A stretch of 32,000 bases of DNA from NCBI GenBank assembly GCA_963704435.1, contig OY969902.1:390001-422000 (forward strand). Direction: 5' to 3'. The stretch comes from an uncultured archaeon (GTDB lineage: Archaea; Micrarchaeota; Micrarchaeia; Micrarchaeales; CABMGC01). Position 1 is the stretch's first letter. Each line of letters begins with the position of its first letter. Below, one piece after another: positions 4,433 to 30,787 of the stretch. Below the pieces are notes generated by a model. The model was not told the origin of the DNA. It worked only from the letters and a program-made list of their open reading frames with translations, and made no database searches. The position numbers and the translations under genes are program-made.

Positions 4433-5836
4433 TCATTCGTTTTTCTCGGCAAACTTTGAACCTCGGATATCTCCAAGATACTCTTCTTTTTGTCGCTCCT
4501 TACCTGTTTTCTCATAATTCTTTCTCGCCATTTTCGATTTTTTGTAATCCTCTTCCAAAATTTTCTGTTGCATTGAGTAAGCATTATCAAAATGCCTGTA
4601 GCAGAATCTTCCAACAATCACATTTGTGGTAGTTAGTTTTGATAATCTTATTCCAAGATTAAGACTCATTAATTTGTCGGTATGACTATCTAAACTATCT
4701 GAATCGATAACAGGAACGCAAAATAAAAAGCCATCTGGACTCGCTAAATCGTAACTGGCGGCAAATTTGTTCGTATGTATATTGTCAGGTTCATCAACAA
4801 CTTCAGTCAGCAGTTTAATTTTATTTATTCCAAAAAGGCGGCGGTTAACCATGTTAACCATAATCACTCCCACATATTTGACAGGTAAGTTCTGCATCGT
4901 CATAGTTATTCTTCGAATTTTTCCTTCGTTTCTCAGCTTGTGGTATGAGTACTGCGCTCTTCCCCGGTCAAACGAGTGCCGCTTGTCTATCTCCACGAAC
5001 TCGATTGAGCCATCCGTATTGAGCTCTTCTAGCACGGCAGATTCCCTTTCGAGAAGCTCTCCTTTCTCTTTGAGTAGCCCTATGAACTCGTTCCTAACTG
5101 GAATGAAACCATAGACCTCGTTAAGTGAAACCGTGCTCCAGACCGACTCGAATTCTGAGAGGGCAGTTCTCGCGAATATGACTGCGGCTATCGCCTCGGC
5201 ATTGGTCCTCGCAAGCAAGTACACAATCAAGTCGAAATCTCCTGTGGTAAGTGCAGCCAACTGAATCCTCGGTTCTTTCTCCAAGATTTCTTTGAGTCTA
5301 TCGGAGGAAGGCACGCTTTCAGAGAATTTCACGGTAATCAGGAAAGGCATATAGCCGAACTTTCCTACGTCTATCTCGGGCAGGTATCTGATTCCATACC
5401 TTTTCTCCAGGCTGGCGACCTGCCACGCTGTCGCGTTGACGCTGAGTCCCACCATTTCACTGAGGACAGGGAGGGATATGCGGCCATTCATGCTCAGCGC
5501 GGTCAATAGGGTGTTCTCGTATTTTTTGGAGCTCTCGCGCATCCTTGGCTCTTCAGCGTGCAGTTCAGCCTGAGCGGAGAGCGCTGCTTGCCTGCCGTTC
5601 GGCTCGGCCGCAACTCCAAGCGCCTGCCTGCTGCGCTTATGCCTGCGCACGGCTGTGAACATCCCTTCCTCCGATATCTTGCCCTTGTATATGCTCACCT
5701 TCCTCGATCTCCTTGCCTCAGCATCCCATTTGCTGAAGGAGATATAGACGTAGTGGCGCCCTTTTATGCTCTTCAGCTCGTAGCTGCTGTTCTGCCATTT
5801 GAGCTTAGCAAACGCCTTGGATACCCTATCTTCCAT
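4433..5836 (-). CDS. Tandem Lrp/AsnC-type (HTH + RAM) transcription regulator with an N-terminal extension
   Basis: 467 aa. Module 1: ...LLTALSMNGRISLPVLSEMVGLSVNATAWQVASLEKRYGIRYLPEID..., then the RAM-like FLITVKF...TTGDFDLIVYLLARTNAE. A second, degenerate HTH+RAM-like module follows (ESAVLEELNTDGSIEF...KLRNEGKIRRIT...VGVIMVNM). The N-terminus has ...GRHYVYISFSKWDAEARRSRKVSIYKGKI, and the C-terminal tail is Lys/Glu-rich. Confidence 0.65.
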   Translation of the reverse strand: MEDRVSKAFAKLKWQNSSYELKSIKGRHYVYISFSKWDAEARRSRKVSIYKGKISEEGMFTAVRRHKRSRQALGVAAEPNGRQAALSAQAELHAEEPRMRESSKKYENTLLTALSMNGRISLPVLSEMVGLSVNATAWQVASLEKRYGIRYLPEIDVGKFGYMPFLITVKFSESVPSSDRLKEILEKEPRIQLAALTTGDFDLIVYLLARTNAEAIAAVIFARTALSEFESVWSTVSLNEVYGFIPVRNEFIGLLKEKGELLERESAVLEELNTDGSIEFVEIDKRHSFDRGRAQYSYHKLRNEGKIRRITMTMQNLPVKYVGVIMVNMVNRRLFGINKIKLLTEVVDEPDNIHTNKFAASYDLASPDGFLFCVPVIDSDSLDSHTDKLMSLNLGIRLSKLTTTNVIVGRFCYRHFDNAYSMQQKILEEDYKKSKMARKNYEKTGKERQKEEYLGDIRGSKFAEKNE

Positions 5837-6729: not shown

Positions 6730-8757
6730 CTATTGCTGTCCATATGAGAGGGAAGGAGTGGGGGTTCCCGTCTTCTTCTTTGGCATTCGCCTGAACGCGA
6801 CATATACGATGACCACCGCTGCAATCGCGAAGGCCGCGATATTCGTCGGGGATATGAAGAACACCGTTACGGCCTTCCCGTACCCGACTGTCACGGGGCT
6901 GCTCATCCCAAAATAGCTGGCCGTGCCGTTTGCCGCTCCGTAGGGCGCGTCCGCCAGCTGCACCGTGCCGCTAGCGCCTGAAAAAGTCCTGCTAGAGCTG
7001 AGGTTCCCATAGGTAAGGGATACCGTCGCATTCACAGGAATAAGGAACAGGTCCACGGTCCTTATGGAGATGTTGTATATGGGCAGCGCGACGGAGACAT
7101 TGGATGGCGCTGCCGCCGAGATGCTGACGTTCACCGGGAGCAGGACCCCCTTGTAGTAGGCGCCTTCCACTGAATGGGTCTGGTTGGCGTTGAGGAAGAA
7201 GGTGCCGTTCTCCAGTTTGCCGTCGACAATGAAGTATGACACGGGAATCTGGTTACCATAGGCGTCGGTTCCTGCCAAGCCAATTCTGTACTGCGTGTCG
7301 AAGATCGCGTGCAGGCTTAGCGGACCTGACACCGCCTCCCTGAACGTGCTGTTGGCGTTTCCGTTGCTCCAGGATGCGAAGGCCTCCCTCTCGCTCGCGC
7401 TTATGTTTACTATCGGCCTGCTCACTCCGATGTCCGCGACGGTTCCGTTGGCGTACCATCCGCTCCCGGTTGCGTTCGGGTACGGCGAAGTGGCGTTTAC
7501 CAGGTATTCATGCAGCCAGAGGGCATTCAGGCTTACCGGACCCGAGACCAAGAAGTTGCCGCTGAGGTTCCTGTTGCCGTTGCTCCAAGAGCTGAACGCG
7601 TATCTCGCCGTCGCGTTCTCATAGACCATCGATGTGTTGAGCCTGTAGCTCGCTAACGACGCGTTGTTGTACCACCCCGTCCCCGTGACCTGCGAGAAAG
7701 GCGAGGAGACGTTCACGAACTGCTGCAGTCGCCAGTTCGCGGTCTCCGTTATGTTGCCGACGAGCATTACCGAGACGTTGTTCTTGGTCCCCGTATACGA
7801 TCCCACTCCGGAGCCCGACCAGCCGGTGAACACCGCACGGGTCGTATTTCCGACGTAAGAAATCCCCGGCGCGGTCAGGTTGACTGTGGAGTATGCCGCA
7901 TAGCCCACCCTGCTGCTCAGGTTGCCGTATCTCGACAGCACGCTGGCCGTGTAGCCCAGGCTCCACAACTGCGCGCTTTCCGTATTAGGCAGCCCGGATC
8001 CGACCGCGAAATAGTTGGTCCTGCTTCCTATCTCCTGGACTCCATAGGGGTTCGGCACGCTGGTTGCGCTGCCCACCCCATAGCTCACATCTCCGAATCC
8101 TGTGGCCACTGGAAGGAACGATCCGTGCGCGTATGATGAGAGGTTCGAGAAAATCACCCGGTTCATGTTCACCTGCGCCCTGCCGGTCGCGTTCGCAAGC
8201 TCGGCCAGCGCGACGGGGGAGAAGGGCCCCGATGACGACTCCCCTATGCTTACGCTTCCGAGCGTCTTCCCGTCCATGAGGAAATACCATACGTTGCCCA
8301 CAGAATAGAAGGAATACGTGTTGAGCGTACCGTTGACTCCTGCTGACCCGTCAGGGCCTATCTGGCCGGTGAAAGTGTTGTTCTTCCCCGGAAGGAAGTA
8401 CTCGTAGAACCACTCCGCGTCGCCCTTCCTCAGGTATTCGTCACCAGAGCAGCCTGAGACCGTGCAGTTAGCGGCGTACTGCCCGGTGTCGTTCTCGATG
8501 ACATAGCCCACCTGCAGGAAGGCGCTGTTCGCGAAGTTCTCGCCGACCCAGAAAGCCATCGAGCCGCTTGAGAGGGACTGCGTCGTTATGGTCTGTATCG
8601 TCACGCTCGCCCCGTTGTTGTACGCAGCGCCGCTCCCCGCCCTTACCCCGCTCTGGAACCAGTACTGCGCATTGGCAGCCGCCAGCAGCAGCGCTAGGGA
8701 CAGCAGAAGGGAAGCCAAGGGCAGCCTACAGTTTCTCATAATCCAAACCGATCTCAT
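6730..8757 (-). CDS. Cell-surface glycoprotein: signal peptide, eqolisin(G1)-like N-domain, three InlB-B-repeat-like units, C-terminal TM anchor
   Basis: 675 aa. Signal peptide LLLSLALLLAAANA/QYW. About 30 N-x-S/T sequons by my count. Three repeats carry the F-x-(G/S)-W-S-(G/N)-G signature (AVFTGWSGSG, YAFSSWSNGN, EAFASWSNGN). The C-terminus has IAAFAIAAVVIVYVAF followed by RRMPKKK. Confidence 0.75.
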   Translation of the reverse strand: MRSVWIMRNCRLPLASLLLSLALLLAAANAQYWFQSGVRAGSGAAYNNGASVTIQTITTQSLSSGSMAFWVGENFANSAFLQVGYVIENDTGQYAANCTVSGCSGDEYLRKGDAEWFYEYFLPGKNNTFTGQIGPDGSAGVNGTLNTYSFYSVGNVWYFLMDGKTLGSVSIGESSSGPFSPVALAELANATGRAQVNMNRVIFSNLSSYAHGSFLPVATGFGDVSYGVGSATSVPNPYGVQEIGSRTNYFAVGSGLPNTESAQLWSLGYTASVLSRYGNLSSRVGYAAYSTVNLTAPGISYVGNTTRAVFTGWSGSGVGSYTGTKNNVSVMLVGNITETANWRLQQFVNVSSPFSQVTGTGWYNNASLASYRLNTSMVYENATARYAFSSWSNGNRNLSGNFLVSGPVSLNALWLHEYLVNATSPYPNATGSGWYANGTVADIGVSRPIVNISASEREAFASWSNGNANSTFREAVSGPLSLHAIFDTQYRIGLAGTDAYGNQIPVSYFIVDGKLENGTFFLNANQTHSVEGAYYKGVLLPVNVSISAAAPSNVSVALPIYNISIRTVDLFLIPVNATVSLTYGNLSSSRTFSGASGTVQLADAPYGAANGTASYFGMSSPVTVGYGKAVTVFFISPTNIAAFAIAAVVIVYVAFRRMPKKKTGTPTPSLSYGQQ

Positions 8758-15739: not shown

Positions 15740-16150
15740 ATGAAGAACGCAACGATCACGCATATCGTAATAAAAGTGCGGGATATTGCAAAATCGAGGC
15801 CGTTTTATCAGAAGCTTTGTGCTATTCTTGGTTTAAAGGAAGTCCGTTCATCCAAGCAGGGGTTCGCTTATGCGAATGGCGCATTTAGCATATGGGTTAG
15901 CAAAGCCAAAGACGCGACCAAGCACTCTAGGAGCGCTATAGGATACGACCATGTCGCTTTCAGCGCGTCTTCCAGAAAACAGGTTGATGACCTACAAAAG
16001 ATGCTCAGATACGAGAAATTCAGGATCCTCTATCCTGCCAAAGAACATCCTGAATATGCGCCCGGCTACTATTCAGTATCGTTTTTCGACCCTGATGGTA
16101 CAATCCTGGAACTTCTTCATCTGCCCAAAGGCAAAAATTCCTACGGCTGA
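15740..16150 (+). CDS. VOC (glyoxalase / bleomycin-resistance / dioxygenase) superfamily protein
   Basis: 136 aa. ITHIVIKVRDIAKSRPFYQKL...LGL, GYDHVAFS, and YYSVSFFDPDGTILELL are the paired beta-alpha-beta-beta-beta module signatures. Confidence 0.75.
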   Translation: MKNATITHIVIKVRDIAKSRPFYQKLCAILGLKEVRSSKQGFAYANGAFSIWVSKAKDATKHSRSAIGYDHVAFSASSRKQVDDLQKMLRYEKFRILYPAKEHPEYAPGYYSVSFFDPDGTILELLHLPKGKNSYG

Positions 16151-16330
16151 TATTCGGTAAGAGCGGGAGGTACTTAGGTGTAATGAAAATGAAGGCATCC
16201 GCAACACACGTACAGTTCCAAGCCAGCCCATAGACGGGTGTTGCTGGCGCGTTAGCATTACTGTGAAGCCCTCCAGCTTCGCCTTTCGCCTACAACAAGA
16301 GATATTAACATTTAAGATTTATGGGTAGCC

Positions 16331-16684
16331 ATGGTGAGCACGTACCTGGAGATTGCGGTGTTCGGAGCGGTCGCGCTCCTGGTGCCAGTCCTGATGCTTG
16401 CCTTTTCCAAGCTCGTGCGGCCACCCGGCGAGAACAGCGTGGCCGAGACGCAGCCCTTCGAGAGCGCGGAGGCGAGCGTCGGCAGGGGCGTCACCCCCAT
16501 GAACGAGTACGCGCACTACTTCGCGGTCTTCGCGGCATTCGCCGTGCTCTGCGCGATAATGGTCGCATGGAGCCTCACTGCGAAGCAGTTGGATTTCATA
16601 GGCAACGTCAGGATGGGGGCGCTCCTTGCCATGGGCGTATTCCTTGAGTTTTTCGTGCTCGCGATGGGCAGGAGGAGGGTTTGA
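16331..16684 (+). CDS. nuoA: NADH:quinone oxidoreductase subunit A
   Basis: 117 aa with 3 TM helices, first gene of the nuo cluster. The loop FESAEASVG sits where YECG usually is. The stop abuts the nuoB ATG. TATA-like GATATTAA at 16301-16308. Confidence 0.8.
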   Translation: MVSTYLEIAVFGAVALLVPVLMLAFSKLVRPPGENSVAETQPFESAEASVGRGVTPMNEYAHYFAVFAAFAVLCAIMVAWSLTAKQLDFIGNVRMGALLAMGVFLEFFVLAMGRRRV

Positions 16685-17239
16685 ATGGCCGGCATCCATG
16701 AAGAGAACGCAGAAACGGAGATGACGCAGCTGGCCTCAGACTCGCTCAGCAGGCGCAGGCCAAGGCAGGGCGTGCTGTTCACGACCATGTCCGACATAAC
16801 GAAGGCGCTCTCGAAAGGCGCGGTCAAGTGGTCGCGCGAGAACTCGCTCTGGCCGCTCAGGTTCGGCATATCCTGCTGCTCGATGGAGGCGCTGGACTTC
16901 GGCTCCCCACGTATCGATTCCGAGAGGGAGGGCTACGCGTTCTTCAGGGGAACGCCAAGGCAGAGCGACGTCATGATAGTCTCAGGATGGGTCACGAAGT
17001 CTCTCGCGCCCGAGATAAAGAGGCTCTACGAGCAGATGCCCAAGCCGAAGTACGTCATCGCGTACGGCGTGTGCGCCGTGGGAGGCGGGCCGTGGGCTGA
17101 AAGCTACAACATCATAAAGGGCATCGACCAGCTGCTGCCGGTCGACGTATACGTCGCAGGCTGCCCGCCGAAGCCGGAGAACCTGTTCGCAGCGTTCAGG
17201 AAGCTCAGGAAGAAGATAGGTGGTGAGATTGAAGGTTGA
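16685..17239 (+). CDS. nuoB: NADH:quinone oxidoreductase subunit B (N2 cluster subunit)
   Basis: WPLRFGISCCSMEA, YGVCAVGGGPW and VAGCPPKPE supply the four canonical Cys ligands. Confidence 0.95.
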   Translation: MAGIHEENAETEMTQLASDSLSRRRPRQGVLFTTMSDITKALSKGAVKWSRENSLWPLRFGISCCSMEALDFGSPRIDSEREGYAFFRGTPRQSDVMIVSGWVTKSLAPEIKRLYEQMPKPKYVIAYGVCAVGGGPWAESYNIIKGIDQLLPVDVYVAGCPPKPENLFAAFRKLRKKIGGEIEG

Positions 17240-17594
17240 AAGGAAGGACTTGCTCGACGAGCTCGGCACGCTGAAGCGGGGAGGCCTATCCTATCTGGTC
17301 AAGATAACCGCGGTGGACTACAAAGACCGCATAAGCATAGTATACACGGTAAGGGATCCCGCTTCGGGCAAGGACGAGGTTGTCGAGGTCGATGTCGCTC
17401 CGACCGACGCCTGGGTCCCGAGCGCGGCAGGAATCTACCGCGCCGCCGACTGGTACGAGAGGGAGCTGGCCGAGATGTTCGGCATAGAGGTGAAGGGCAG
17501 GCGCGTTGGAAGGCTGCTGCTCGAGAAGTGGAACGGCAAGCCCGCTCCCCTTAGGAAGAATTTCGCCTGGGGAGGGGCGTACGAGAGGAAGTGA
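17220..17594 (+). CDS. nuoC: NADH:quinone oxidoreductase subunit C (short form)
   Basis: 124 aa. YRAADWYERELAEMFGIEVKG is the NuoC signature. GTG start overlapping nuoB. Confidence 0.85.
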   Translation: MVRLKVERKDLLDELGTLKRGGLSYLVKITAVDYKDRISIVYTVRDPASGKDEVVEVDVAPTDAWVPSAAGIYRAADWYERELAEMFGIEVKGRRVGRLLLEKWNGKPAPLRKNFAWGGAYERK

Positions 17595-18688
17595 AGATGT
17601 CTACCAGAATAAACATAGGGCCCGTGCACCCGAGCATGCAGGATTCGCTGCGGCTTGTGGTCGACGTCGAGGGCGACACGGTCGTGGGTGTGGAGCCGCA
17701 TGTGGGCCTCCTGCACAGGGGCGTCGAGAAGCTGGTAGAGAACAGGGCATACATGCAGAACCCGGCGTACATGGAGAAGCTCGACTACGCCGCGCCGCTG
17801 GCGTACGACGACCTGTACGTGGCCGCCGTCGAGGACGCCGTTGGGGCCGCGGTCGGAGAGAGGGCGATGTACGAGCGCACCATACTGCTCGAGCTCCAGA
17901 GGATCGCCAGCCACCTCCTGTGGCTAGGCACGATGGCGAACGACCTGTCCCCCGAATCCAGCCTGTTCATGTGGACGCTCAGGGACAGGGACATGGTGCT
18001 GCGTCTGCTGCAGGAGGTTTCGGGATCTAGGATGTTCTACGTCAATATGAGGCTGGGCGGCCTGGCAAGGGACTTCCAGCCTGGCTTCGGGGAGCGCGCG
18101 GTATCCGTAATCGACCAGCTCAGGAAGAGGGTCAAGGAATACGAGTCCTTCATAGACAAGGATCCCGTATTCAAGGAGAGGCTGGTCGGGGTGGGTAAGC
18201 TCACCAAGGAGAAGGCGATAGACCTGGGGGTGACAGGGCCGGTCTTGAGGGGTTCGGGTGTCGAGAGCGATGCCAGGAAGGACAAGCCGTATTACGCGTA
18301 CGAGAAGCTCAACTTCAGGGCCCACATGAAGCGCGATGGGGACTGCTTCGCCAGGTACAAGGTCAGGATGATGGAGCTGGCCGAGAGCATGAGGATCGTC
18401 AAGGACGGTCTCAAGGGCCTGCCGGACGGGTCTTCGGTGGGAATCCCCGTCAGTCTGGTGGTCCCCGAGATCAGGAAGAGGGTAGTCTGCGTCAGCAGGG
18501 AGACGCCGCGCGGAGAATGCATGATGTACATGGTCGCGGATCCCCAGAGGCCCTACCGGCTTTCGATACGCTCGCCTTCCTTCATAAACTTGGCGGCGAT
18601 CCGCGAGATGGCGCGGGGCTGCAGGATGGCCGACCTCTTCGCGATACTCGGCAATCTGGACGTTGTGATGGGTGATGTCGATAGATAG
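17591..18688 (+). CDS. nuoD: NADH:quinone oxidoreductase subunit D
   Basis: INIGPVHPSMQDSLRLVVDVEGDTVV, HRGVEKL, and C-terminal LGNLDVVMGDVDR. The start is GTG 17591 or ATG 17597, overlapping the nuoC stop. Confidence 0.95.
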   Translation: MKMSTRINIGPVHPSMQDSLRLVVDVEGDTVVGVEPHVGLLHRGVEKLVENRAYMQNPAYMEKLDYAAPLAYDDLYVAAVEDAVGAAVGERAMYERTILLELQRIASHLLWLGTMANDLSPESSLFMWTLRDRDMVLRLLQEVSGSRMFYVNMRLGGLARDFQPGFGERAVSVIDQLRKRVKEYESFIDKDPVFKERLVGVGKLTKEKAIDLGVTGPVLRGSGVESDARKDKPYYAYEKLNFRAHMKRDGDCFARYKVRMMELAESMRIVKDGLKGLPDGSSVGIPVSLVVPEIRKRVVCVSRETPRGECMMYMVADPQRPYRLSIRSPSFINLAAIREMARGCRMADLFAILGNLDVVMGDVDR

Positions 18689-19679
18689 CTTTGCGATGCT
18701 GCAGCTCTCGCTCCAGGGATTGCTGGCCTCAGGCGGCGTCTCAGCGGCAGCCGCGCTGGCGGCCTACGCTGTTCTCGTCGTCGTGCTGGTCATCGCGTTC
18801 GGCTACGCGTTCAGCTGGGCCGAGAGGAGGATAATCGCAGGGATCCAGTCGAGGCGCGGACCGACGCGCGCAGGCGGGCTGCTGCAGAACTTCGCTGATA
18901 TAACGAAGCTTCTCTCCAAGGAGGACGCCACTCCTCGCGCCGCCAACGGATTCCTGTTCAAGGCGTCGATGCTGCTCATGCCCGCGGCGTTCGTGTTCCT
19001 GATCATGCTGCTCCCCTTCTCGCCCGGCTCCCTTGCGGGAGGGCTAAGCCTAGGAATGCTCGCAGTGTTCGTCGCGCTCTCATTCATCCCCTCCCTCGTC
19101 TTCGTCTGCGGCTTCTCCAGCGGAAACAAGTTCTCTGAGATGAGCGCGCAGAGGGCCATAGCCGCCCAGCTCGGCTACGGGCTGCCGATGGTGCTCGCTG
19201 CGGCGGCGGTCGCGATGTTCGCGGGCGCGTACGGATTCCAGGGGATAGTCGCCGCGCAGGCCGGAGCGTGGTTCGTGCTCCTTATGCCGATAGGATTCGC
19301 CGTGTTCTACGTGGCGCTGCTCGCGGACTTGGGCAAGGCCCCGCTCGACGCGGGGGAGACTGACTCGGATATGGTCGCGGGCTGGCTGACCGACGCGAGC
19401 GCCCCGTACTACGCGCTCGCGCTGTTCGCGGACTACGCCAGGATGTTCCTCGGGAGCCTGCTCATCTCGATGCTGTTCCTCGGCGGGTGGCTGGGACCCG
19501 TGCTGCCTCCGGTCGCCTGGCTGCTCATAAAGGCGTTCGTCGTTCTGCTGTCCATAACCGTCGTGCGCGAAGCCCTGGCATCGATGAGGATCGACAGGAT
19601 ACTGAGATTCGGGTGGGTCGCGCTCATCCCGCTTGCGGCGCTAAACTTAATAATTGTGTCAATTCTATTCATCCGATGA
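18672..19679 (+). CDS. nuoH: NADH:quinone oxidoreductase subunit H
   Basis: WAERRIIAGIQSRRGPTRAGGLLQNFADITKLLSKED signature. About 8 TM helices. Confidence 0.9.
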   Translation: MMSIDSFAMLQLSLQGLLASGGVSAAAALAAYAVLVVVLVIAFGYAFSWAERRIIAGIQSRRGPTRAGGLLQNFADITKLLSKEDATPRAANGFLFKASMLLMPAAFVFLIMLLPFSPGSLAGGLSLGMLAVFVALSFIPSLVFVCGFSSGNKFSEMSAQRAIAAQLGYGLPMVLAAAAVAMFAGAYGFQGIVAAQAGAWFVLLMPIGFAVFYVALLADLGKAPLDAGETDSDMVAGWLTDASAPYYALALFADYARMFLGSLLISMLFLGGWLGPVLPPVAWLLIKAFVVLLSITVVREALASMRIDRILRFGWVALIPLAALNLIIVSILFIR

Positions 19680-20052
19680 TTGCTTGTTCGTGGAGCCGCT
19701 CGCCAAGGCAGTAAGGAGTCTCGCGGATAAGAAGGCCACCCTGGAATTCCCCGCGGAGAAAGAATCCTTGGACGACGTGGAGCGCGGCGCCCTGCTGCTT
19801 GACATGGACACCTGCGTGAGCTGCTGCGCGTGCGAGCAGATGTGCCCGGCGAAGGCGATAGACATGGTCGAAGTGAAGGCATCGGCGAGCGCCACGAAGA
19901 AGATGCCGCAGGTAGGGATGGACAGGTGCATGCTCTGCGGATTCTGCGAGGAGGTCTGTCCGACGAAATGCCTGTCGCTGACCAAGGGCTACGACTTCGA
20001 AGTGTGCGACAAGAGGGCGCTGACGAAAAGGCCCGAGGAGCTCAGGGGTTAG
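19654..20052 (+). CDS. nuoI: NADH:quinone oxidoreductase subunit I (2x[4Fe-4S])
   Basis: CVSCCACEQMCP and CMLCGFCEEVCP. The track start at 19654 is a TTG inside nuoH; GTG 19690 (VEPLAKAV...) is a likelier start. Confidence 0.85.
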   Translation: MCQFYSSDDCLFVEPLAKAVRSLADKKATLEFPAEKESLDDVERGALLLDMDTCVSCCACEQMCPAKAIDMVEVKASASATKKMPQVGMDRCMLCGFCEEVCPTKCLSLTKGYDFEVCDKRALTKRPEELRG

Positions 20053-20055: not shown

Positions 20056-20532
20056 ATGGCGGACATGGAGCTCGCTGCCATCTTTGCGATAATGCTAGTT
20101 CCCGCAGCGCTGATGTTCCTGGAAAGGAAGCCGCTTCGCACTGCGATATGCCTGGCGATATCCGCGTTCGGAGGGGCGCTCCTGCTGCTCTACGTCGGGC
20201 AGAGCCTCGCCGCGCTGCTGCAGCTTTTCGTGTTCGTAGGTTGCCTGCCCCTTTACCTGACCATGTCCGTCGCGTCCGAGGATGCGCGGATCACGGTGAA
20301 GGACGGCGCGAAGTTCTTCCTCTCGGCGGCCCTGGCGGTCGGAGGGCTGTGCCTTCCCTTCGTCATTTTTGCAGGTGGCGCCGCCCTGCCGGTCGGCAAC
20401 AATCTCGTCGCTGCCGCGGCCGCGTCGCTTGAAAGCCAGTACGTCATGGCATATGCTTCAGTATTCCTCGTATTCGCGTCGGCGATTGGCGCGGCCGTCA
20501 TAGTCAGGAGGTCCTCGAAGGTGGTCGTCTGA
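20056..20532 (+). CDS. nuoJ: NADH:quinone oxidoreductase subunit J
   Basis: 158 aa, 5 TM helices. AALLQLFVFVGCLPLYLTMSVA corresponds to the A..Q..VY.GA..VLF.F motif region. Position between nuoI and nuoK. Confidence 0.75.
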   Translation: MADMELAAIFAIMLVPAALMFLERKPLRTAICLAISAFGGALLLLYVGQSLAALLQLFVFVGCLPLYLTMSVASEDARITVKDGAKFFLSAALAVGGLCLPFVIFAGGAALPVGNNLVAAAAASLESQYVMAYASVFLVFASAIGAAVIVRRSSKVVV

Positions 20533-20828
20533 TGCTGAATTATGTGCTGCTGGCTTCTGTGGCCACCATAGGAGTGGCCTTGGCGGGGATAATCTCGAGC
20601 AGGCACTTCGCCGTGCTCATGCTCGCCGTGGAGCTAATCCTGATGTCTAGCTCCGTCCTCCTGCTTTCATACTTCTCGCTGTCCCCTGTGGCGGGAATCG
20701 ATGCCTTCCCCATGCTGGTCGGGATCTGGTCTGTAGTGGCCGTGGAGGCCATCGCGCTAACGGCATTCCACGTTTACATGAGGTCGCGCGGCATGGGCCT
20801 TGACCTTTCAAAGCTTCCGCGACAATAG
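20532..20828 (+). CDS. nuoK: NADH:quinone oxidoreductase subunit K
   Basis: 98 aa, 3 TM helices, with a membrane Glu in LAVELILMS. ATG overlaps the nuoJ stop (ATGA-type coupling). Confidence 0.85.
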   Translation: MLNYVLLASVATIGVALAGIISSRHFAVLMLAVELILMSSSVLLLSYFSLSPVAGIDAFPMLVGIWSVVAVEAIALTAFHVYMRSRGMGLDLSKLPRQ

Positions 20829-20835: not shown

Positions 20836-21711
20836 ATGCTAGGACCCATGATACTTCTGCTGCCCCCTCTCGCCGCGCTTGCGGCGATAGCGCTAAGCAG
20901 GAACCGGTGGATTGCCAAGTATGCTGCATTGGCGGGATGCCTAGCCGGCCTGCTTCTGCTACCGTTCGTAGACCGCGGCACTGAAAGCGCCGCGTGGTTC
21001 AGCGGCGGGGGCGCGACCTTCGTAATCACGACCTTGATGGGCCCCCTTAACGTGCTGCTCGCTGCGGCCGTTCTCGTGGTAGGCATCCTGGCCTCGTTAT
21101 ACTCGTTCCGGTTCGCGGACCTGCCTAGCGAGAAGCGGCGGTTCTGCATCGGGATGCTTGCGATCGAGACATCGGTACTCGCCATCACCATGGCAGGCAA
21201 TTTCATGCTCCTGCTGATCGCATGGGGATTCCTAGGCGCCTCCGGCTACCTGCTCAGGGGATTCCGCGGCGGGGCGAGGGCCAGCGCCGCCGCCAGGAGA
21301 TTCCTGACGCTGGTTTTGGTAGGGGATGTCGCGCTGATCGCTTCGACAGCCATATTATTCACCACGTACGGCAGTCTCGAATTCAATATCATACTCGGAT
21401 CCCTCCGGGCTACTCCGATTCCCCGCTCCGCGGCGGCGCTTCTGGCGCTGGCAGCCTTAACATGGCCCGCGGACCTCATCCTAACTGTGGATGCCCTCAG
21501 CCCGACGTTTGCGTTCTTCTCTAGGTTCATAGAGATCCTTGGAGACGGCTTCGCCTACTTCGACGAGTCCTTGGACAACGCGCTGTATCTGCTGGGACGC
21601 GCTCTGTCACGGCTGGGCAGGACGAAGAGAGCGGGCGCCGGGATTAACGCTTACGTCCTACTGTTCGCGGTAGGCATCCTACTGCTGCTCGTTGCAATGG
21701 TGTTCATTTGA
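20836..21711 (+). CDS. nuoL: Truncated NuoL-like subunit (NuoL N-terminal module plus C-terminal anchor; antiporter core absent)
   Basis: 291 aa from ATG 20836. LSRNRW, IAWGFLGASGYLLRGF and VLVGDVAL are colinear with E. coli NuoL LAFSRGRW, LGWEGVGLCSYLLIGF and TRVGDVFL (recalled). The C-terminus GFAYFDESLDNALY...INAYVLLFAVGILLLLVAMVFI resembles NuoL's last helices. There is no Proton_antipo_M core block. Confidence 0.7.
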   Translation: MLGPMILLLPPLAALAAIALSRNRWIAKYAALAGCLAGLLLLPFVDRGTESAAWFSGGGATFVITTLMGPLNVLLAAAVLVVGILASLYSFRFADLPSEKRRFCIGMLAIETSVLAITMAGNFMLLLIAWGFLGASGYLLRGFRGGARASAAARRFLTLVLVGDVALIASTAILFTTYGSLEFNIILGSLRATPIPRSAAALLALAALTWPADLILTVDALSPTFAFFSRFIEILGDGFAYFDESLDNALYLLGRALSRLGRTKRAGAGINAYVLLFAVGILLLLVAMVFI

Positions 21712-23087
21712 TGATATCACTGGCTCTAGGCTTCGCGGTGGTGCTCGCGCTCTACCTGCTGGTGAACATGTCAGCAAGCCTTGTGCGCGCCAAGAAGTTC
21801 CAATTCGCCTGCAACGCTATCCTCCTGGCACTGCTCTGCGTAGGCGCACTTGCGCTGTCCGGAGTTACGGCGACTTACCTGAGCATGATATCGGTGAATC
21901 CCTTCTCGGCGATGTTCGCCCTCGCCTTCACGCTCACGGTCTTCCTCGCCAACTTCCTGGCTTACGTCGCGCCGCAGGGCTATTCTGACTTCGCGCTGTT
22001 GGGCTCCTTCGCCCTGGCGGGATCGTACCTGATCGCGTTCGCGAGCTCGCTCGTAGCGATATTCCTTGGCCTGGAGGCGGTGGCGGTGCCCGCCGCGTTC
22101 ATCTTGTTGATCTCAAGGAGGCAGAGCGCCGGAGCAGCCGCTAAGTTCTTCATCATTTCTTCGCTGTCGGTCGCTGTGCTCTCGTTTGCCGCGGTGCTCG
22201 TCTACGGATCTTCAGGAACTCTCGCCCTTGCCGTCCACCCGCAGAGCCCTGTCCTCGCATTGGCAGCAGCCCTATTCATCGCATCCTTAGGATTCGGAGC
22301 GCTCATCTTCCCGTTCAACGCCTCCCTGGCGGGAATCTATCACGGCGCATCCGCGCAAGCAATCTCAATCGCGGGAGTTCTGCAGAACAAAGTAGGATTC
22401 GCGGCCATGATGCTCGTATTCGTCCTTGTCTTCCAGTCTTACGGGCTCGCGTTCCAGGCCATTGCAGTGCTCGCAGCGCTCACCATGCTCGCGGGCAGCG
22501 TCCTGGCGAACGGCCAGAACAGCCTGAAGAGGCTGCTCGCCTACGCGTCGTTCGCGCAGGCGGGGTTCGTGCTCGTCGGGATCGCGACGAACAGCGCAGC
22601 GGGGCTAGGCGCCAGCTCGGTGCAGATATTCGCAGACGTCTTCTCCTTCATGGGAATCCTCGGGATAATCGCATGGCTGGAGCGGCACGACAGGAGCCGC
22701 GTGGACGACCTGGTGGGGCTCTACAAGGAGAACAGGTTCGTGGCCGTGGCGCTCTGCATATTCCTGCTCTCGCTGCTGGGGATTCCGTTCACGGTGGGCT
22801 TCGTAGGAAAATTCCTGATCCTCCTCGAGGCGACAAAATCGGGACTGCTGTGGCTGGCTGCAGTGGGCGTGATTGAAATCGCAATCTCGGTATTCTACTG
22901 CGCGCGCGCGATGACCGCGATGTATGCGGGAAGGGCCGGAGCGAAGAGAGTGCGCCTCGATCGCGCGACTGCCTGTGTCGTCGTAATATGCCTGTTGCTT
23001 ACGCTTGCATTTGGAATCTATCCGCAGCCGATGATCAGCATCGCGAACAGCGGCGCGGGCTATCTTTTCAGCCTGGCCGCGCACTGA
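21711..23087 (+). CDS. nuoN: NADH:quinone oxidoreductase subunit N (with substitutions at conserved TM7 positions)
   Basis: FLGLEAVAVP (TM5 Glu), KRLLAYASFAQAGFVL, GIPFTVGFVGKF, IYPQPMISI. ATG 21711 overlaps the mini-nuoL TGA (TGATG). The track lists a TTG at 21708. Confidence 0.85.
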   Translation: MISLALGFAVVLALYLLVNMSASLVRAKKFQFACNAILLALLCVGALALSGVTATYLSMISVNPFSAMFALAFTLTVFLANFLAYVAPQGYSDFALLGSFALAGSYLIAFASSLVAIFLGLEAVAVPAAFILLISRRQSAGAAAKFFIISSLSVAVLSFAAVLVYGSSGTLALAVHPQSPVLALAAALFIASLGFGALIFPFNASLAGIYHGASAQAISIAGVLQNKVGFAAMMLVFVLVFQSYGLAFQAIAVLAALTMLAGSVLANGQNSLKRLLAYASFAQAGFVLVGIATNSAAGLGASSVQIFADVFSFMGILGIIAWLERHDRSRVDDLVGLYKENRFVAVALCIFLLSLLGIPFTVGFVGKFLILLEATKSGLLWLAAVGVIEIAISVFYCARAMTAMYAGRAGAKRVRLDRATACVVVICLLLTLAFGIYPQPMISIANSGAGYLFSLAAH

Positions 23088-25915: not shown

Positions 25916-26014
25916 CCCGCTGTAGCTCAATGGCAGAGCGACCGGCTGTAGTTTGTCACTTCTTCACGGCAAGAAGATACCGGTAGGTTGGGTGTTCAAA
26001 TCACCCCAGCGGGA
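25916..26014 (+). tRNA. tRNA-Tyr (anticodon GTA) with a 27-nt intron
   Basis: Hand-folded. Acceptor CCCGCTG/CAGCGGG (C1:G72, A73, the archaeal Tyr identity set). D arm GCTC-AATGGCA-GAGC. Anticodon stem ACCGG/CCGGT. Variable loop AGGTT. T arm GGGTG-TTCAAAT-CACCC. CCA is not encoded. TATA-like TATATTAATATT at about 25870-25880. Confidence 0.85.
25952..25978 (+). other. tRNA-Tyr intron at the canonical 37/38 position
   Basis: 34 nt lie between the anticodon-stem strands. Removing 25952-25978 leaves the loop CTGTAGA. The intron contains a CTTCTT/AAGAAG hairpin. I could not fit a strict bulge-helix-bulge (BHB) motif by hand. Confidence 0.7.
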
Positions 26015-26034: not shown

Positions 26035-26289
26035 TTGGACTACGTTGCGATAATAGGCACAGCCGCAGGGGCGCTGACCACGTTCTCGTACCTTCCGGAA
26101 CTGGTTGACGTGCTGAAGACGAGAGTGACTAAGGACCTGTCAGAGGTTTGGCTGATCTCAGTCAGCACAGGCTTCGTCCTTTGGACGTACTATGGCTACT
26201 GCATTAATTCATGGCCCCTCGTTCTGTTCAGCGCGCTGTCGCTGGCCTTCGCGATGGCGCTCCTGGCGCTGAAATTAAGGTATAAGTAG
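26035..26289 (+). CDS. SemiSWEET (PQ-loop, 3-TM) transporter unit, divergent copy 1
   Basis: 84 aa, 3 TM helices, TTG start 20 nt after tRNA-Tyr. About 40% identical by eye to copy 2. It has LPE in place of the PQ motif and S in place of the pocket Asn (LFSA versus VWNA). Confidence 0.65.
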   Translation: MDYVAIIGTAAGALTTFSYLPELVDVLKTRVTKDLSEVWLISVSTGFVLWTYYGYCINSWPLVLFSALSLAFAMALLALKLRYK

Positions 26290-26320: not shown

Positions 26321-26393
26321 GCCTTGGTGGTGTAGTGGACTAGCATACGACCCTGTCACGGTTGTGACCCGGGTTCGAATCCCGGCCAAGGCG
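26321..26393 (+). tRNA. tRNA-Asp (anticodon GTC)
   Basis: Hand-folded. Acceptor GCCTTGG/CCAAGGC. TGGTGTAGTGGACTAGCATACGACCCTGTCACGGTTGTGAC matches the typical archaeal tRNA-Asp body. T arm CCGGG-TTCGAAT-CCCGG. Discriminator G. Confidence 0.9.
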
Positions 26394-26443
26394 CTTTGGA
26401 ACTGCGACAAGGATCGTATCCTAAAATTAAAAGTTGATTGATT

Positions 26444-26701
26444 ATGCCATATGCCGAAATCCTGGGCCTGATCGCAGGCTTCTTCACGACGGTTGCATAT
26501 GTGCCGCAGGCAATAAAGGCATTCAAGACAAAGTCCACGAAGGATCTCTCAATACTGTGGCTCTCGATTGCGGGGTTTGGAGCCACATTGTGGATCTTTT
26601 ACGGATTCTCGATAGGCTCCATCCCCATAATAGTATGGAATGCTGGAGGAGACGTCCTGATTGCGATACTTATAATATTGAAGTCAAAATACAACCGATA
26701 A
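26444..26701 (+). CDS. SemiSWEET (PQ-loop, 3-TM) transporter unit, canonical copy 2
   Basis: 85 aa from ATG 26444 (the track lists a TTG at 26438). FTTVAYVPQAIKAFKTKSTKDLS contains the PQ motif, and LWIFYGF...VWNAGG contains the Trp/Asn pocket residues. Confidence 0.75.
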   Translation: MPYAEILGLIAGFFTTVAYVPQAIKAFKTKSTKDLSILWLSIAGFGATLWIFYGFSIGSIPIIVWNAGGDVLIAILIILKSKYNR

Positions 26702-27508: not shown

Positions 27509-28024
27509 ATGCAAGGCAACTACGAACGTCCCAAGACGAGCAGCGATAGGCAGTCGCTCATGGTCAGCGAGATAATGAGCAGCCCCGTAATAACCGCGAC
27601 GGAGAGGACGAGCATCAGGGACATAGCGAAGATGATGAGCAAGCACAGGATAGACGCCGTGGTCATAGCCAACAAGCAGAACGAGCCCGTAGGGATGGTC
27701 ACCGGAGGCGACATAGTAAAGAAGCTCGTATCGAGAAAGAGGAACCTGCTATTCTCCAAGGCGAAGCACATAATGAGCAAGCCTGTCGTAACCGTCGCGA
27801 GGCCGGTGAAGCTGGAGGACGCTGCCAGGAGAATGGTCGAGAGGAAGGTGAAGAAGCTGTGCGTCGTCGACGAGGGCAACAAGGTGATAGGGATCGTCAC
27901 GTCCTCGGACATAACGAAGAACGCGAGCCACCTGATAGACGTGCTGGAGGAGATAATAGGCACGGGCTACGTGCTTGCGGACGAGGCGGCGGAAGCCGCT
28001 GCGCAGGGCAGCCTAGAGGCCTAG
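27509..28024 (+). CDS. CBS-domain pair protein
   Basis: Two CBS motifs: IMSSPVITA...IDAVVIANKQNEPVGMVTGGDIVKK and IMSKPVVTV...VKKLCVVDEGNKVIGIVTSSDITK. The start is ATG 27509 or 27560. The 3' end overlaps the convergent nuoM by 12 nt. Confidence 0.8.
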   Translation: MQGNYERPKTSSDRQSLMVSEIMSSPVITATERTSIRDIAKMMSKHRIDAVVIANKQNEPVGMVTGGDIVKKLVSRKRNLLFSKAKHIMSKPVVTVARPVKLEDAARRMVERKVKKLCVVDEGNKVIGIVTSSDITKNASHLIDVLEEIIGTGYVLADEAAEAAAQGSLEA

Positions 28025-29428
28025 GGGCGCGAGTAGCAGGCCCGGAAGGATTCCCAGGACGACCGTGGCGCATATGAGGATTCCCGCGGCAGCGTACACT
28101 CCCTTCTTCGGGCTCTCGAAGGGCTCGGTGAAGCCCGTGACGGGCATGAACGATTTCTCTATCACGAAGAACAGGAACGCCCCCGCGAGCGCGACGGAAA
28201 CCAGCGGGGCTATGCCCGCTATGCCGTACGCCTCGAACGCCCCAGAGGCACTGAGGAAGTAGCCGATGAACCCGCTCGTGAGGGGAAGCCCGATGAAGGC
28301 GAACGTGCAGAAGATGAAAGAGTATGCGAGGTAGGGCATGCTGTTCATGATACCCTTTACCTTTCCGAAAAGTAGCGTTCCATAGGATTCGTCCACTGCG
28401 CCGGAGACCAGGAACAGCATCGAGGATACGATTCCCTGGCCGAGCAGCAGGTATAGCCCTCCGGCAGTTCCGATCTGGTTAAGCGATACGAGGCCTATCG
28501 CGGCTATTCCCGACCCGACCATGCCGATGTATGCGGCAATCCTTTTCAGGTCCGACTGCCGGATTGCGACAAGCGACGCGTAAATCGCCGAGAAGCCGAA
28601 GAGCACAGCAAGGTACTTCGCATATACTGATACGACGGGCAACATCAGAATCAGGAGGAGCAGGCCGTAGGCCCCGGACTTGAAAAGCATTCCGGATTGA
28701 AGCATGCCTGCAGTCGCGGGCGACTCCGCCTGCGCGCTCTCCAGCCAGGAATGGAAGGGGAACACGGGCATCTTTATTATGAACGCTAGTAGGAGGAGGA
28801 GCATTGCGAGGAACTGCGCACCTTGCGGGATGGAAGCGGACTGGCTTATGATTGAGGCGATGTCGAACGTGTGGGTCGGAACGTTCGCGTAGATGACCAT
28901 TATCCCGAGGAGGAGGGCAAGGCTCGCCACCGTGGAGTATATCAGGAACTTTATGGCGGCGTACCGCCTCTCCTGGCCCCCAAACACGTGTATCATGAAG
29001 AACATCGCGACGTCGCACAGCTCCCAGAATGCGAAGAACAGGAACAGGCTGCCCGACAGGAAGATTCCAAGCGCTGAAGCTTCCGTGAGGAGGAAGAGCA
29101 CGCCGTAAATCCTGTGCGACTCCTTCACGAAGGAGCCGGCGCAGACGGACGCCGACAGGAGGACTACCGCAGACAGCACCAGGAATATCCCGCTATATCC
29201 TGTGAGTTGGAAGTTCACGTTTATTCCGAGGGAAGGAAGATACGCGTAACTGAAAGAGAGAGCGACTAAGCCGCTGTTTGCACTAACATAAAATACGTAC
29301 AGCGTCAGTAGGAAGACTATCGCGGAAGAAAGCGTCGCAATCTTTAGCGAGTGGCGCTCTCCGGCAAGAAGTACAGGTATGATGAACGCCACGGGAATGA
29401 GGACAAGGAGTGGCAACAGGGGAAACAC
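28013..29428 (-). CDS. nuoM: NADH:quinone oxidoreductase subunit M, located away from the nuo cluster
   Basis: FFAFWELCDVAMFFMIHVFGG, IKMPVFPFHSWLESAQAESPATAGMLQSGMLFKSGAYGLL and LKRIAAYIGMV align with NuoM (FFFFWEMMLVPMYFLI; KMPVVPLHGWLPDAHSQAPTAG...LLKTAAYG). The track ORF start at 29887 is an artefactual extension antisense to cdc6. The start is GTG 29428 (VFPLLPLL...) or GTG 29446. Confidence 0.85.
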   Translation of the reverse strand: MFPLLPLLVLIPVAFIIPVLLAGERHSLKIATLSSAIVFLLTLYVFYVSANSGLVALSFSYAYLPSLGINVNFQLTGYSGIFLVLSAVVLLSASVCAGSFVKESHRIYGVLFLLTEASALGIFLSGSLFLFFAFWELCDVAMFFMIHVFGGQERRYAAIKFLIYSTVASLALLLGIMVIYANVPTHTFDIASIISQSASIPQGAQFLAMLLLLLAFIIKMPVFPFHSWLESAQAESPATAGMLQSGMLFKSGAYGLLLLILMLPVVSVYAKYLAVLFGFSAIYASLVAIRQSDLKRIAAYIGMVGSGIAAIGLVSLNQIGTAGGLYLLLGQGIVSSMLFLVSGAVDESYGTLLFGKVKGIMNSMPYLAYSFIFCTFAFIGLPLTSGFIGYFLSASGAFEAYGIAGIAPLVSVALAGAFLFFVIEKSFMPVTGFTEPFESPKKGVYAAAGILICATVVLGILPGLLLAPLGL

Positions 29429-29476
29429 AGCATCACCGCCGCGCACGCCGCAGCAGATAGTGAAACTGAATTCAGG

Positions 29477-29484
29477 TTTATATA
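29477..29484. promoter_or_regulatory. TTTATATA element in the nuoM / cdc6 divergent intergenic region
   Basis: Consensus-like archaeal TATA, quasi-symmetric, 31-56 nt upstream of the candidate nuoM GTG starts. A second A+T-rich block (TTAATAAGAATAATT, 29521-29535) lies about 30 nt upstream of the cdc6 ATG at 29561. Confidence 0.4.
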
Positions 29485-29560
29485 CGTTAATGTGAGCCGT
29501 GGGAGGAGCCACAGAAGAGTTTAATAAGAATAATTGCAAAACAGCTATAAGGGGCAGAGA

Positions 29561-30787
29561 ATGGACCAGAGATTCGCAGATTTGTTCAAGGAGTCCAAGA
29601 TATTCGCCAACCGGGAGGTGCTGTCCCCTCACTACATGCCCGACGTGCTGCCCTTCAGGGACAAGCAGATAAATGACATAGTGAAGTCGCTCACCCCGTC
29701 GCTTAGGGGCGAGAGGGGAAGGAACATATTCATCTACGGCAAGACTGGGACCGGGAAGACCTCGTGCATGAAGCACGTGATAAACGAGGTCAGGAGCCTG
29801 CCTGTCGTGAAGGTGAGGATATCCTACGTCAACTGCAGGATATACAACTCCAGGTACCGGGTGCTCAGCAAGATAGCCAGCGACCACCTTCCGCTCTACG
29901 CCAAGCGCGGCTACGGAGTCGTCGAGATCTACGAGAAGATAATCAACTGGATAGAGGAGGACGGGAAGGTCCTTCTGGTCATTCTCGACGAGATTGACAT
30001 AGTCAAGGACCTCGACGACCTGGTGTACACGCTGACCAGGGCGAACAGCGACCTAAGGTCTGGCGGGATAACTATCGTCGGCATATCGAACAAGACGAAC
30101 TTCAAGGAGCAGCTGGACCCCAGGAGCCTGTCCACCCTGTACGAGAACGAGCTGGTCTTCCCTCCTTACAATTCGAACGAGCTCGCGACGATACTGGAGG
30201 ACAGGGCCGCGAAGGGCTTCAGGCCAGGAGTAATAAGGCAGGAGACGCTGAGGCTCGCGGCCGCGATAGCCGCAAAGGAGAGCGGCGACGCAAGGCTCGC
30301 CCTGAAGATAATATCCAAGGCGGGCGAGCTCGCGGAGGAGCACGGGCTCACCGGGATAAACGCGAAGGAGGTACAGGCGGCCGCGCAGGACGCCGAGGAG
30401 GAGATAGCCTACGAGGTAATATCCACGCTGCCCGAGCACCAGAAGCTGGTGCTCTACGCCATCGCCCTGCTCGAGCTGCAGGGCAGCAGGTACAAGAAGC
30501 TCGTGGACGGGGACGACTCGCTGATGTTCAGCGGCGAGGTGTACGCCAGGTACGCCAAGCTGTCCGAATCGCTGAAGAGGGACGCGAAGAGCAACAGGTG
30601 GTACAGGAAGTACATAACCGACCTGGAGATGCAGGGGCTCATAGTGACCTACCAGTCCGGCAAGGGTGTGAGGGGCCACACCAAGCTCGTGAAGCTGTCC
30701 TACCCCGCCAACAAGATAAAGGACACGATAGAGAAGAGCATATTCATGGAAAGCGAGGCCAAGGGAGACGCCAGCGTCGTTGCTTGA
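29561..30787 (+). CDS. cdc6: Orc1/Cdc6 replication initiator
   Basis: FANREVLSPHYMPDVLPFRDKQI, Walker A IYGKTGTGKTS, Walker B LVILDEID, sensor VGISN, and a C-terminal winged helix (...GVRGHTKLVKL). ATG 29561 is preferred over the track's TTG at 29534. Confidence 0.9.
   Translation: MDQRFADLFKESKIFANREVLSPHYMPDVLPFRDKQINDIVKSLTPSLRGERGRNIFIYGKTGTGKTSCMKHVINEVRSLPVVKVRISYVNCRIYNSRYRVLSKIASDHLPLYAKRGYGVVEIYEKIINWIEEDGKVLLVILDEIDIVKDLDDLVYTLTRANSDLRSGGITIVGISNKTNFKEQLDPRSLSTLYENELVFPPYNSNELATILEDRAAKGFRPGVIRQETLRLAAAIAAKESGDARLALKIISKAGELAEEHGLTGINAKEVQAAAQDAEEEIAYEVISTLPEHQKLVLYAIALLELQGSRYKKLVDGDDSLMFSGEVYARYAKLSESLKRDAKSNRWYRKYITDLEMQGLIVTYQSGKGVRGHTKLVKLSYPANKIKDTIEKSIFMESEAKGDASVVA

Follow-up and report, generated by a model that had tools for sequence, protein, structure and literature searches.

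The window analysed here, a 32,000 nt stretch of DNA from an uncultured archaeon of the Micrarchaeota (assembly GCA_963704435.1, contig OY969902.1, positions 390,001 to 422,000 of the forward strand), carries an operon for respiratory complex I in which the slot of nuoL is occupied by a single short gene, designated here as mini-nuoL (20836–21711 on the plus strand; 291 aa, ATG start, TGA stop). Based on profile alignments, structure prediction and comparison with related loci, we consider, with a probability of roughly 0.75, that this open reading frame (ORF) is a real and functional nuoL of Candidatus Micrarchaeota complex I from which the interior has been deleted, and whose product would act as a non-pumping structural subunit amid a reductive remodelling of the enzyme. 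A first-pass annotation, made by a model from the letters of the window and a list of its ORFs, had already pointed to a single intact 291-aa ORF at the position of nuoL, and the ORF was indeed uninterrupted from 20836 to 21711.

Profile searches identified the product, mini-NuoL, as a derivative of NuoL. The NCBIfam NuoL model PRK06590 matched residues 7–198 at model positions 8–211 of 615 (E = 4e-14), and a phmmer search against PDB chains retrieved the solved NuoL, ND5 and NdhF proteins, NuoL chains being matched at E = 5e-7 to 3e-6. The whole protein scored only 52.5 bits against PRK06590 (cutoff 556) and 47 bits against TIGR01974 (cutoff 407.5) and so missed the family cutoff of both models; mini-NuoL is thus best regarded as a derived NuoL and not as a canonical member of the family. 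When a 592-position hidden Markov model (HMM) built from 35 full-length relatives was used instead, the protein aligned in two separate domains: residues 4–212 corresponded to profile positions 3–216 (171.5 bits), i.e. transmembrane helix (TM) 1 to TM7a, and residues 224–290 to positions 522–590 (E = 7e-10), i.e. most of the lateral amphipathic helix (HL) and the terminal TM16, while positions 217–521 (∼305 positions) found no match. The NuoL-derived origin of the ORF, which the first-pass annotation had exposed to refutation by profile alignment, was thereby confirmed at both ends of the protein, as was its resemblance at the C-terminus to the amphipathic segment and final TM helix of NuoL. 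Likewise, the proposed colinearity with TM1–6 over ∼200 aa was borne out, but was found to extend further, through TM7a to residue 212.

On the DNA, the segment encoding TM1–TM6 and TM7a (residues 1–212), delimited by the first HMM domain, AlphaFold2 (AF2) helices and Foldseek, lies at 20836–21471, and is followed by the deletion junction at 21472–21504 (residues 213–223; HMM gap 216–522), at which the protein has lost TM7b to TM15 and the beginning of HL. The remaining HL, defined by an AF2 helix and the second HMM domain, spans 41 aa (residues 222–262; 21499–21621), and the terminal anchor helix, equivalent to TM16 according to AF2 and to alignment with the C-terminal TM of full-length proteins, is encoded at 21643–21705 (residues 270–290). 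Hence TM1–3, the β-hairpin and the start of the first five-helix repeat are homologous to and colinear with those of NuoL, and the C-terminal pair of HL and TM16 anchor is present as well, whereas the region from TM7b to TM14/15 is cleanly gone and in frame (profile gap, residues 212–224), the earlier annotation having given the missing part as TM7 to TM14/15. The alignments show, at the level of sequence, that mini-NuoL descends from a NuoL of ∼590 aa by loss of ∼305 residues.

The deleted region spans both broken helices, the TM7 Lys, the TM8 His, the TM11 Lys and the TM12 site. At the edge of the deletion, the TM7 motif ‘LTKSAQFPF’ has become ‘LTWPAD’ in the alignments, and in the retained part the TM5 Glu is replaced by Gly131 (21226–21228; motif WE(G/F) changed to WGF), the latter substitution having been noticed before. 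The charged relay formed by TM5 Glu, TM7 Lys, TM8 His, TM11 Lys and TM12 Lys is accordingly missing from mini-NuoL. No match of mini-NuoL to the Pfam domain Proton_antipo_M (PF00361) was obtained at E ≤ 0.1, so that a complete antiporter core is not present, and tblastn with full-length relatives as queries detected nothing left of the missing core in any of the window's reading frames, in keeping with the earlier statement that alternative frames hold no NuoL remnants.

The AF2 model of mini-NuoL, with a mean predicted local distance difference test (pLDDT) score of 90.9, placed helices at residues 4–20, 25–44, 70–93, 97–118, 123–144, 147–178, 197–220, 222–262 and 270–290 and the NuoL β-hairpin at residues 49–67, corresponding to eight TM helices plus HL. 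The top Foldseek match was E. coli NuoL (7p61_L; TMq 0.65, root mean square deviation 2.6 Å, N-terminal 225 columns), and almost all of the Foldseek matches listed were NuoL, ND5, NdhF or MrpA chains. In the model of a full-length relative, P0013 (P0xxx denotes related proteins and L0xx related loci or contigs throughout), TM15 was found at residues 462–485, HL at 498–554 (57 aa) and TM16 at 559–579; compared with this model, the 41-aa HL of the window protein is predicted to be shorter by ∼16 residues. As TM7 and TM15 are both odd-numbered in the canonical 16-TM topology, the fusion of TM7a to HL would keep the membrane topology intact.

An assembly or gene-calling artefact, in which a chimera or collapse removed the middle of a normal nuoL, has the unusual length of the gene in its favour and nothing further. 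The identical product, in its 303- or 291-aa version, was present on seven contigs from at least five assemblies (NCBI, Logan and ENA, obtained from different runs), orthologous short forms were found in two further samples, and the junction is in frame and lies inside a confidently modelled helix. An artefact is thus extremely improbable, and the assembly collapse against which the first-pass annotation had cautioned is contradicted by the seven contigs. In an exact look-up, the 291-aa product had no record and the 303-aa version starting at TTG was recorded. The orthologues, however, begin at the position of the mini-nuoL ATG and not at the upstream TTG. From this ATG, nuoK and mini-nuoL are separated by a spacer of 7 nt, and the two genes would overlap only with the alternative start TTG at 20800. 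The start/stop coupling that had been proposed for both neighbours therefore applies to nuoN, whose start (TTG 21708 or ATG 21711) overlaps the stop codon of mini-nuoL, but not to nuoK.

The two further short forms are P0011 (289 aa), carried by L014 from a JGI sample, and P0012 (293 aa), carried by L015 from an SRA run, which are ∼58–59% and ∼50–51% identical to the window protein, respectively. Both are located in the same nuoK–L–nuoN–CDC48 context, so that a survey of orthologous operons, as outlined in the first-pass annotation, did recover the short form in its K–L–N setting. The NuoN protein of the window was 73% identical to that of L014 and 67.5% to that of L015, and its NuoH, NuoD and NuoB were 77–79% identical to those of L015. 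The open frame and host-like codon usage reported earlier were also evident, as mini-nuoL contains no interruptions and its GC content at third codon positions (0.74) is like that of nuoK, nuoN and nuoM.

Pairwise comparisons of the three lineages by the method of Nei and Gojobori (NG86) gave a ratio of non-synonymous to synonymous substitution rates (dN/dS, ω) of 0.29–0.36 for mini-nuoL at dS values of 0.85–1.4, which are close to saturation and make the ω values rough ones. The corresponding ratios were 0.17–0.23 for NuoN, 0.12 for NuoD, 0.18 for NuoH and ∼0.23 for NuoK and NuoJ. For HL and TM16, the degree of conservation equalled that seen in full-length lineages of comparable divergence. 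None of the features expected of a pseudogene, such as frameshifts or stops, an ω near 1 or a variable length, was encountered, the gene being intact at 289–293 aa in all three lineages. Judged by these ratios, selection on mini-nuoL is purifying, although somewhat relaxed, and the occurrence of orthologous short forms at such ω values in two other lineages agrees with the earlier view of a selected architecture instead of a recent decay.

When 1.84 billion representative proteins were searched exhaustively with HMMER, P0011 and P0012 ranked first, followed by many NuoL proteins of ∼580–610 aa at 33–40% identity, and mini-NuoL matched the full-length proteins in one N-terminal and one C-terminal stretch. 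Among the 150 best matches of this search, the short architecture consisting of N- and C-terminal parts was confined to P0011 and P0012. Other short matches (P0021, P0046, P0050, P0051, P0071 and others) were rejected, as they proved to be fragments caused by contig edges or frameshifts and were devoid of the C-terminal module. A word-indexed protein search with mini-NuoL returned only the query itself, and scans of metagenome contigs with the mini-NuoL and NuoN alignments yielded no loci. A scan of species-representative contigs with a four-sequence alignment, in a set outside which the genome of the window lies, detected full-length relatives only, and all close relatives of the ORF in the species-representative genome scan came from metagenome-assembled genomes of Micrarchaeota. 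Ten species-representative Micrarchaeota loci carried a nuoL of 572–590 aa at this slot, the one in L009 being frameshifted.

Trees were calculated by neighbour joining (NJ) from single proteins or short fragments, the clade being sampled by three short forms and one fragment. On NuoN the three short-form lineages were monophyletic with 100% bootstrap support, and this clade was nested together with the full-length lineages L001 and L021 (90%). The profile junctions differed between the lineages, the matched positions being 3–216 plus 522–590 in the window protein, 4–213 plus 515–591 in P0011 and 3–175 plus 473–590 in P0012. Thus the window and L014 retain TM6b–7a, whereas P0012 of L015 is without TM6b–7a and retains TM15. 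The same was seen with sub-profiles, as TM6b–7a scored 30.2 bits in the window protein, 22.0 bits in P0011 and 3.0 bits in P0012, and TM15 scored below 0, 2.4 bits and 20.4 bits, respectively. Both deletion designs lead to seven TM helices, HL and one terminal TM helix. A fourth member of the clade, the 1,079 bp contig L026 (JGI 3300051196), carries a NuoL fragment comprising TM10–TM16 (P0085) and, after it, nuoN. Over its first 87 residues this NuoN is 63–67% identical to the short-form clade, compared with 42% to L001, and in the tree L026 and the three short forms made up one group with 100% bootstrap support, which applies to the group as a whole. L026 is therefore the closest long-form relative and the key to dating the deletions. 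The most straightforward interpretation, of moderate confidence, would be that the common ancestor kept a long NuoL and that the core was deleted at least twice. Reciprocal retention of TM6b–7a and TM15, and the core-containing L026 within the clade, make it unlikely, though short of proof, that the three short forms all go back to one ancestral deletion.

The gene order A-B-C-D-H-I-J-K-L-N was common to the window and to L001–L010, L015, L021, L023 and L024, and the slot of mini-nuoL after nuoK is hence orthologous to that of nuoL in its relatives. The operon, encoded entirely on the plus strand, starts with nuoA (16331–16684; 117 aa; Pfam Oxidored_q4, E = 3.6e-6), nuoB (16685–17239; 184 aa; Oxidored_q6, E = 1.8e-26), nuoC (17220–17594; 124 aa; Complex1_30kDa, E = 2.7e-22), nuoD (17591–18688; 365 aa; Complex1_49kDa, E = 2.8e-75) and nuoH (18672–19679; 335 aa; NADHdh, E = 1.7e-73). 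It continues with nuoI (19654–20052), which encodes two 4Fe-4S motifs matched by Pfam Fer4 families and starts at ∼19684 in the public gene calls of the identical contig L016, and nuoJ (20056–20532; 158 aa), whose Oxidored_q3 match (E = 8e-5) lies under the curated cutoff and whose identity is also backed by orthologues at the same position in related operons. The nuoK gene (20532–20828; 98 aa) was assigned by weak NCBIfam NuoK/FpoK matches and by alignment with orthologues, and nuoN (21708–23087; 459 aa) by NCBIfam NDH_I_N (E = 3.8e-57). No nuoE, nuoF or nuoG was assigned in the cluster by Pfam or NCBIfam, as expected for an 11-subunit Nuo/Fpo-like enzyme, and Micrarchaeota complex I without NuoEFG has already been described (PMC5864196).

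The nuoM gene, which the first-pass annotation had missed, is absent from the operon and is found ∼5 kb downstream on the opposite strand (28013–29428; 471 aa; Proton_antipo_M, E = 2.2e-44; a 471-aa gene call is also public), beyond CDC48, two tRNA genes, two PQ-loop genes and genes for DNA-alkylation repair and CBS proteins. In tblastn, Micrarchaeota NuoM proteins matched it with 45–55% identity over ∼445 aa and E-values down to 4e-136, and its displaced location is common to many Micrarchaeota loci. All genes A, B, C, D, H, I, J, K, L, M and N are thus present in the window, nuoL in its short form only, and since nuoM is retained outside the operon, two full antiporter-like subunits remain in the enzyme. 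A divergent intergenic stretch (29429–29533) separates nuoM from an Orc1/Cdc6 gene (29534–30787, plus strand); this adjacency also occurs in L021, and a replication origin might be located nearby.

Conserved residues connected with coupling were found to be replaced in other subunits as well, which the first-pass annotation had not noticed. In NuoM of the window, the TM12 Asp/Glu is replaced by Tyr390 (28259–28261), and this TM12 Tyr, a change from ‘SHG’ to ‘GQG’ in TM11, from Asp to Gly in TM10 and from ‘WLPDAH’ to ‘WLESAQ’ were shared with its closest homologues, P0161 and P0162, which are 80% and 73% identical to it, while most other Micrarchaeota retained the NuoM consensus. The charged TM7 position of NuoN, occupied by Lys in bacteria and generally by Glu in other Micrarchaeota, is Gly in all three short-form lineages (Gly197 in the window; 22296–22298), and NuoN of L015 is additionally without the TM5 Glu and the TM8 Lys. 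In NuoD, the β1–β2 loop reads HPSMQDSLRL in the window as opposed to HPSTHGVLRL in ∼108 of 113 related NuoD clusters, so that the loop His of ‘HPSTHG’, a quinone ligand in canonical complex I, is changed to Gln17 (17639–17641). This His is kept in the ∼108 clusters and is Arg in L015. A strict link between its loss and the short NuoL was rejected, as two other lineages with a NuoD lacking the His carry a full-length NuoL. In the window, NuoB and NuoI have kept their Fe-S motifs, and NuoK has kept both of its Glu residues.

Relatives with a full-length NuoL also showed scattered losses, for instance a Tyr at the TM12 site of NuoM (L021, L023) and single losses of a NuoK Glu, and in the alignments of full-length Micrarchaeota NuoL the TM12 Lys is already Asn, Ser or Gly. 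By the evidence of these alignments, the membrane arm of Micrarchaeota is atypical even before deletion of the NuoL core. Considering the coupling residues lost in NuoM, NuoN and NuoD, the short NuoL therefore represents one part of a wider reduction of complex I.

As mini-NuoL is without the antiporter core and without the relay of TM5, TM7, TM8, TM11 and TM12, a role as a proton channel of the known kind is precluded, and it is probably unable to translocate protons by itself; it may instead be kept for architecture, as a structural subunit. By analogy with the canonical structures, the N-terminal seven-helix module would cap the distal face of NuoM, and HL together with TM16 would act as a strap tying NuoM and NuoN to the region of NuoJ/K. 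This would limit the complex to two antiporter-like modules at most, in addition to the E-channel. Judging from the accompanying substitutions, the proton relay at the M/L end and the trigger at the quinone site may be weakened or rewired. Taken together, the changes in NuoM, NuoN and NuoD of the clade indicate that redox–proton coupling is probably reduced or rewired enzyme-wide, although the electron-transfer core is strongly conserved. Its pumping stoichiometry has probably decreased, perhaps to zero. A more far-reaching proposal, namely that complex I of the clade conserves energy with a terminal antiporter-like subunit that was turned, in at least two independent reductions, into a non-pumping cap and strap, is put forward as tentative and, at present, rather doubtful.

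Several observations weigh against a functional structural subunit, and most of them would equally fit a complex I that is decaying in the course of DPANN genome reduction, with the short ORF as a tolerated leftover without a role of its own. The ω of mini-nuoL, rough as it is, is the highest in the operon, and the N-terminal module has evolved faster in relation to NuoN than in full-length lineages (identity ratio of ∼0.85 compared with 1.0–1.25), so that part of this module may be only weakly constrained. The coupling residues missing from NuoM, NuoN and NuoD could be a sign that complex I as a whole is disappearing. The operon seems to have been lost in one relative, L022: at 15946–16362 of this contig (ENA ERZ25039480) and in the flanks of this stretch, nuoM, a fragmented CDC48, a NuoN remnant of only 138 aa and glycosyl-hydrolase fragments follow one another, with no nuoL or nuoK present. 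L022 may have undergone loss of the nuo operon; however, ribosomal protein genes are also split on the contig, and sequencing indels may contribute. Furthermore, some Micrarchaeota are without the enzyme altogether, Mia14 lacking the NADH dehydrogenase (PMC5864196). A mere leftover is nevertheless unlikely, since three lineages separated by dS values of 0.85–1.4 have kept an open frame of 289–293 codons with ω at ∼0.3, the ten other nuo genes of the window are intact, with the high identity of NuoB, NuoD and NuoH to L015 reported above, HL and TM16 are conserved to the same degree as in full-length lineages, and two different deletions have converged on one topology.

As another possibility, the missing pump might be encoded elsewhere, either as a full-length paralogue resembling NuoL or MrpA or as a separate core fragment, and act in trans, which would leave the number of pumping modules unchanged. 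The search for further NuoL/MrpA-type genes covered the 32 kb of the window, and with nuoM an antiporter-like gene is already located outside the operon in this phylum. Within the window, however, tblastn with full-length relatives matched only mini-nuoL, nuoM and nuoN, and every nuoL of the related Micrarchaeota loci occupies the K–L–N position. The nearest long forms in the exhaustive search were at most 39–40% identical to the query, and the close core-containing fragment P0085 of L026 came from a different sample and is itself placed directly before nuoN. The HL, shorter by ∼16 residues, is also as expected if there is no L core to span. Supply in trans is thus quite unlikely, and we favour mini-NuoL as the structural, internally deleted subunit.

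In comparison with canonical NuoL/Nqo12/ND5 proteins (16 TM), mini-NuoL occupies the same operon slot, is colinear from TM1 to TM7a including the β-hairpin and possesses a homologous HL and TM16, but is without TM7b to TM15, ∼305 of 592 profile positions. Its direct evolutionary source are the full-length NuoL proteins of Micrarchaeota (∼580–600 aa; P0013 and the genes of L001 and L021), to which it is 36–43% identical over the aligned parts, with 45–53% identity to NuoL of L001 and L021 over the N-terminal 170 residues. Their loci share the operon order and the displaced nuoM with the window, and their proteins, unlike mini-NuoL, keep the core with TKSAQFPF...W, the TM8 His and the TM11 Lys. 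Mini-NuoL is accordingly, as far as these alignments go, a recent secondary reduction and not an ancestral small subunit.

The first-pass annotation had been reminded of MbhI of the membrane-bound hydrogenase (MBH), which consists of HL and two TM helices only (PMC8165549), and it has been described for complex I, MBS, Mrp and MBH that the length of HL tracks the number of antiporter-like modules it spans (PMC8165549). The likeness holds for the lateral-helix strap, as MbhI and also the short HL of MBS and Mrp are lateral helices with flanking TMs that hold fewer antiporter-like subunits. It is nonetheless loose, because mini-NuoL adds an N-terminal module of seven NuoL-type TM helices and is encoded in a nuo operon and not in a hydrogenase cluster, the hydrogenase complex of MbhI having a different module arrangement. 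Mini-NuoL might therefore work like an enlarged strap of the MbhI type while standing outside the MbhI family.

In E. coli, deletion of nuoL prevented the assembly of complex I, leaving little enzyme, and truncation of the NuoL HL/TM16 resulted in an enzyme that was fragile and showed hardly any quinone reductase activity (Belevich et al., 2011; PMC3274701). By these experiments, HL and TM16 are required for the complex to be stable and active. The constructs, in which the first 11 TM helices or the C-terminus were removed, resemble mini-NuoL in that much of NuoL is gone (PMC3274701), whereas the natural protein keeps both ends without the middle and is maintained by selection. The ‘2M’ complex I, which, according to the account of Chadwick et al. 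(2018; PMC6194058) given in PMC9040806, contains a second NuoM and an extended NuoL HL, is likewise a natural case in which the antiporter-like modules have changed in number and HL has changed in length to match. The direction is opposite in mini-NuoL, where a module is lost and HL is predicted to be ∼16 residues shorter. We found no prior description of this short NuoL in the literature on truncated NuoL or on Nuo subunits of Micrarchaeota.

Between nuoN and nuoM, a 99 nt tRNA gene (25916–26014, plus strand) was matched by Rfam and not by ARAGORN and probably contains an intron; a tRNA-Asp (GTC) gene follows at 26321–26394 on the same strand. The adjacent genes at 26035–26289 and 26438–26701 (plus strand) encode PQ-loop/SemiSWEET-like membrane proteins of 84 and 87 aa, and relatives carry one or two PQ-loop genes at the corresponding place. 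At the other end of the window, the GC content falls to 0.37 at 4001–5000 against a background of 0.52–0.62. This dip overlaps an ORF of 467 aa (4433–5836, minus strand), the sole family match of which is a winged-helix helix-turn-helix domain, and may represent foreign or fast-evolving DNA. The large ORFs at 35–1144, 1186–2067, 2074–2898, 3053–3985 and 6730–8757 had no Pfam match.

There is still no agreement on the way in which quinone reduction is coupled to proton pumping in complex I. Some models assign an exit of its own to each antiporter-like subunit. As an alternative to these, one current model proposes that all four protons exit via NuoL/ND5 alone (PMC10212512). NuoL deletions made in the laboratory mostly destroy the enzyme (PMC3274701) and are hence unable to settle the question of the exit. 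In the window lineage, evolution has removed exactly the pumping core of NuoL and kept, under selection, the two parts that would hold the membrane arm together. This would make mini-NuoL a natural test of what the NuoL subunit is needed for, and nature would here provide the blueprint of a stable ‘L-core-less’ complex I. If this is true and the enzyme pumps via NuoM, NuoN and the E-channel, an exit through NuoL would not be universally required, contrary to a strict ‘NuoL/ND5-only exit’; if the enzyme is not pumping, it would represent a natural, selectively maintained, uncoupled complex I. In either case, the shortening of the lateral helix together with the loss of a module would be the mirror image of the ‘2M’ enzymes, and the Micrarchaeota loci may provide a view of the stepwise dismantling of respiratory complexes in genome-reduced DPANN symbionts.

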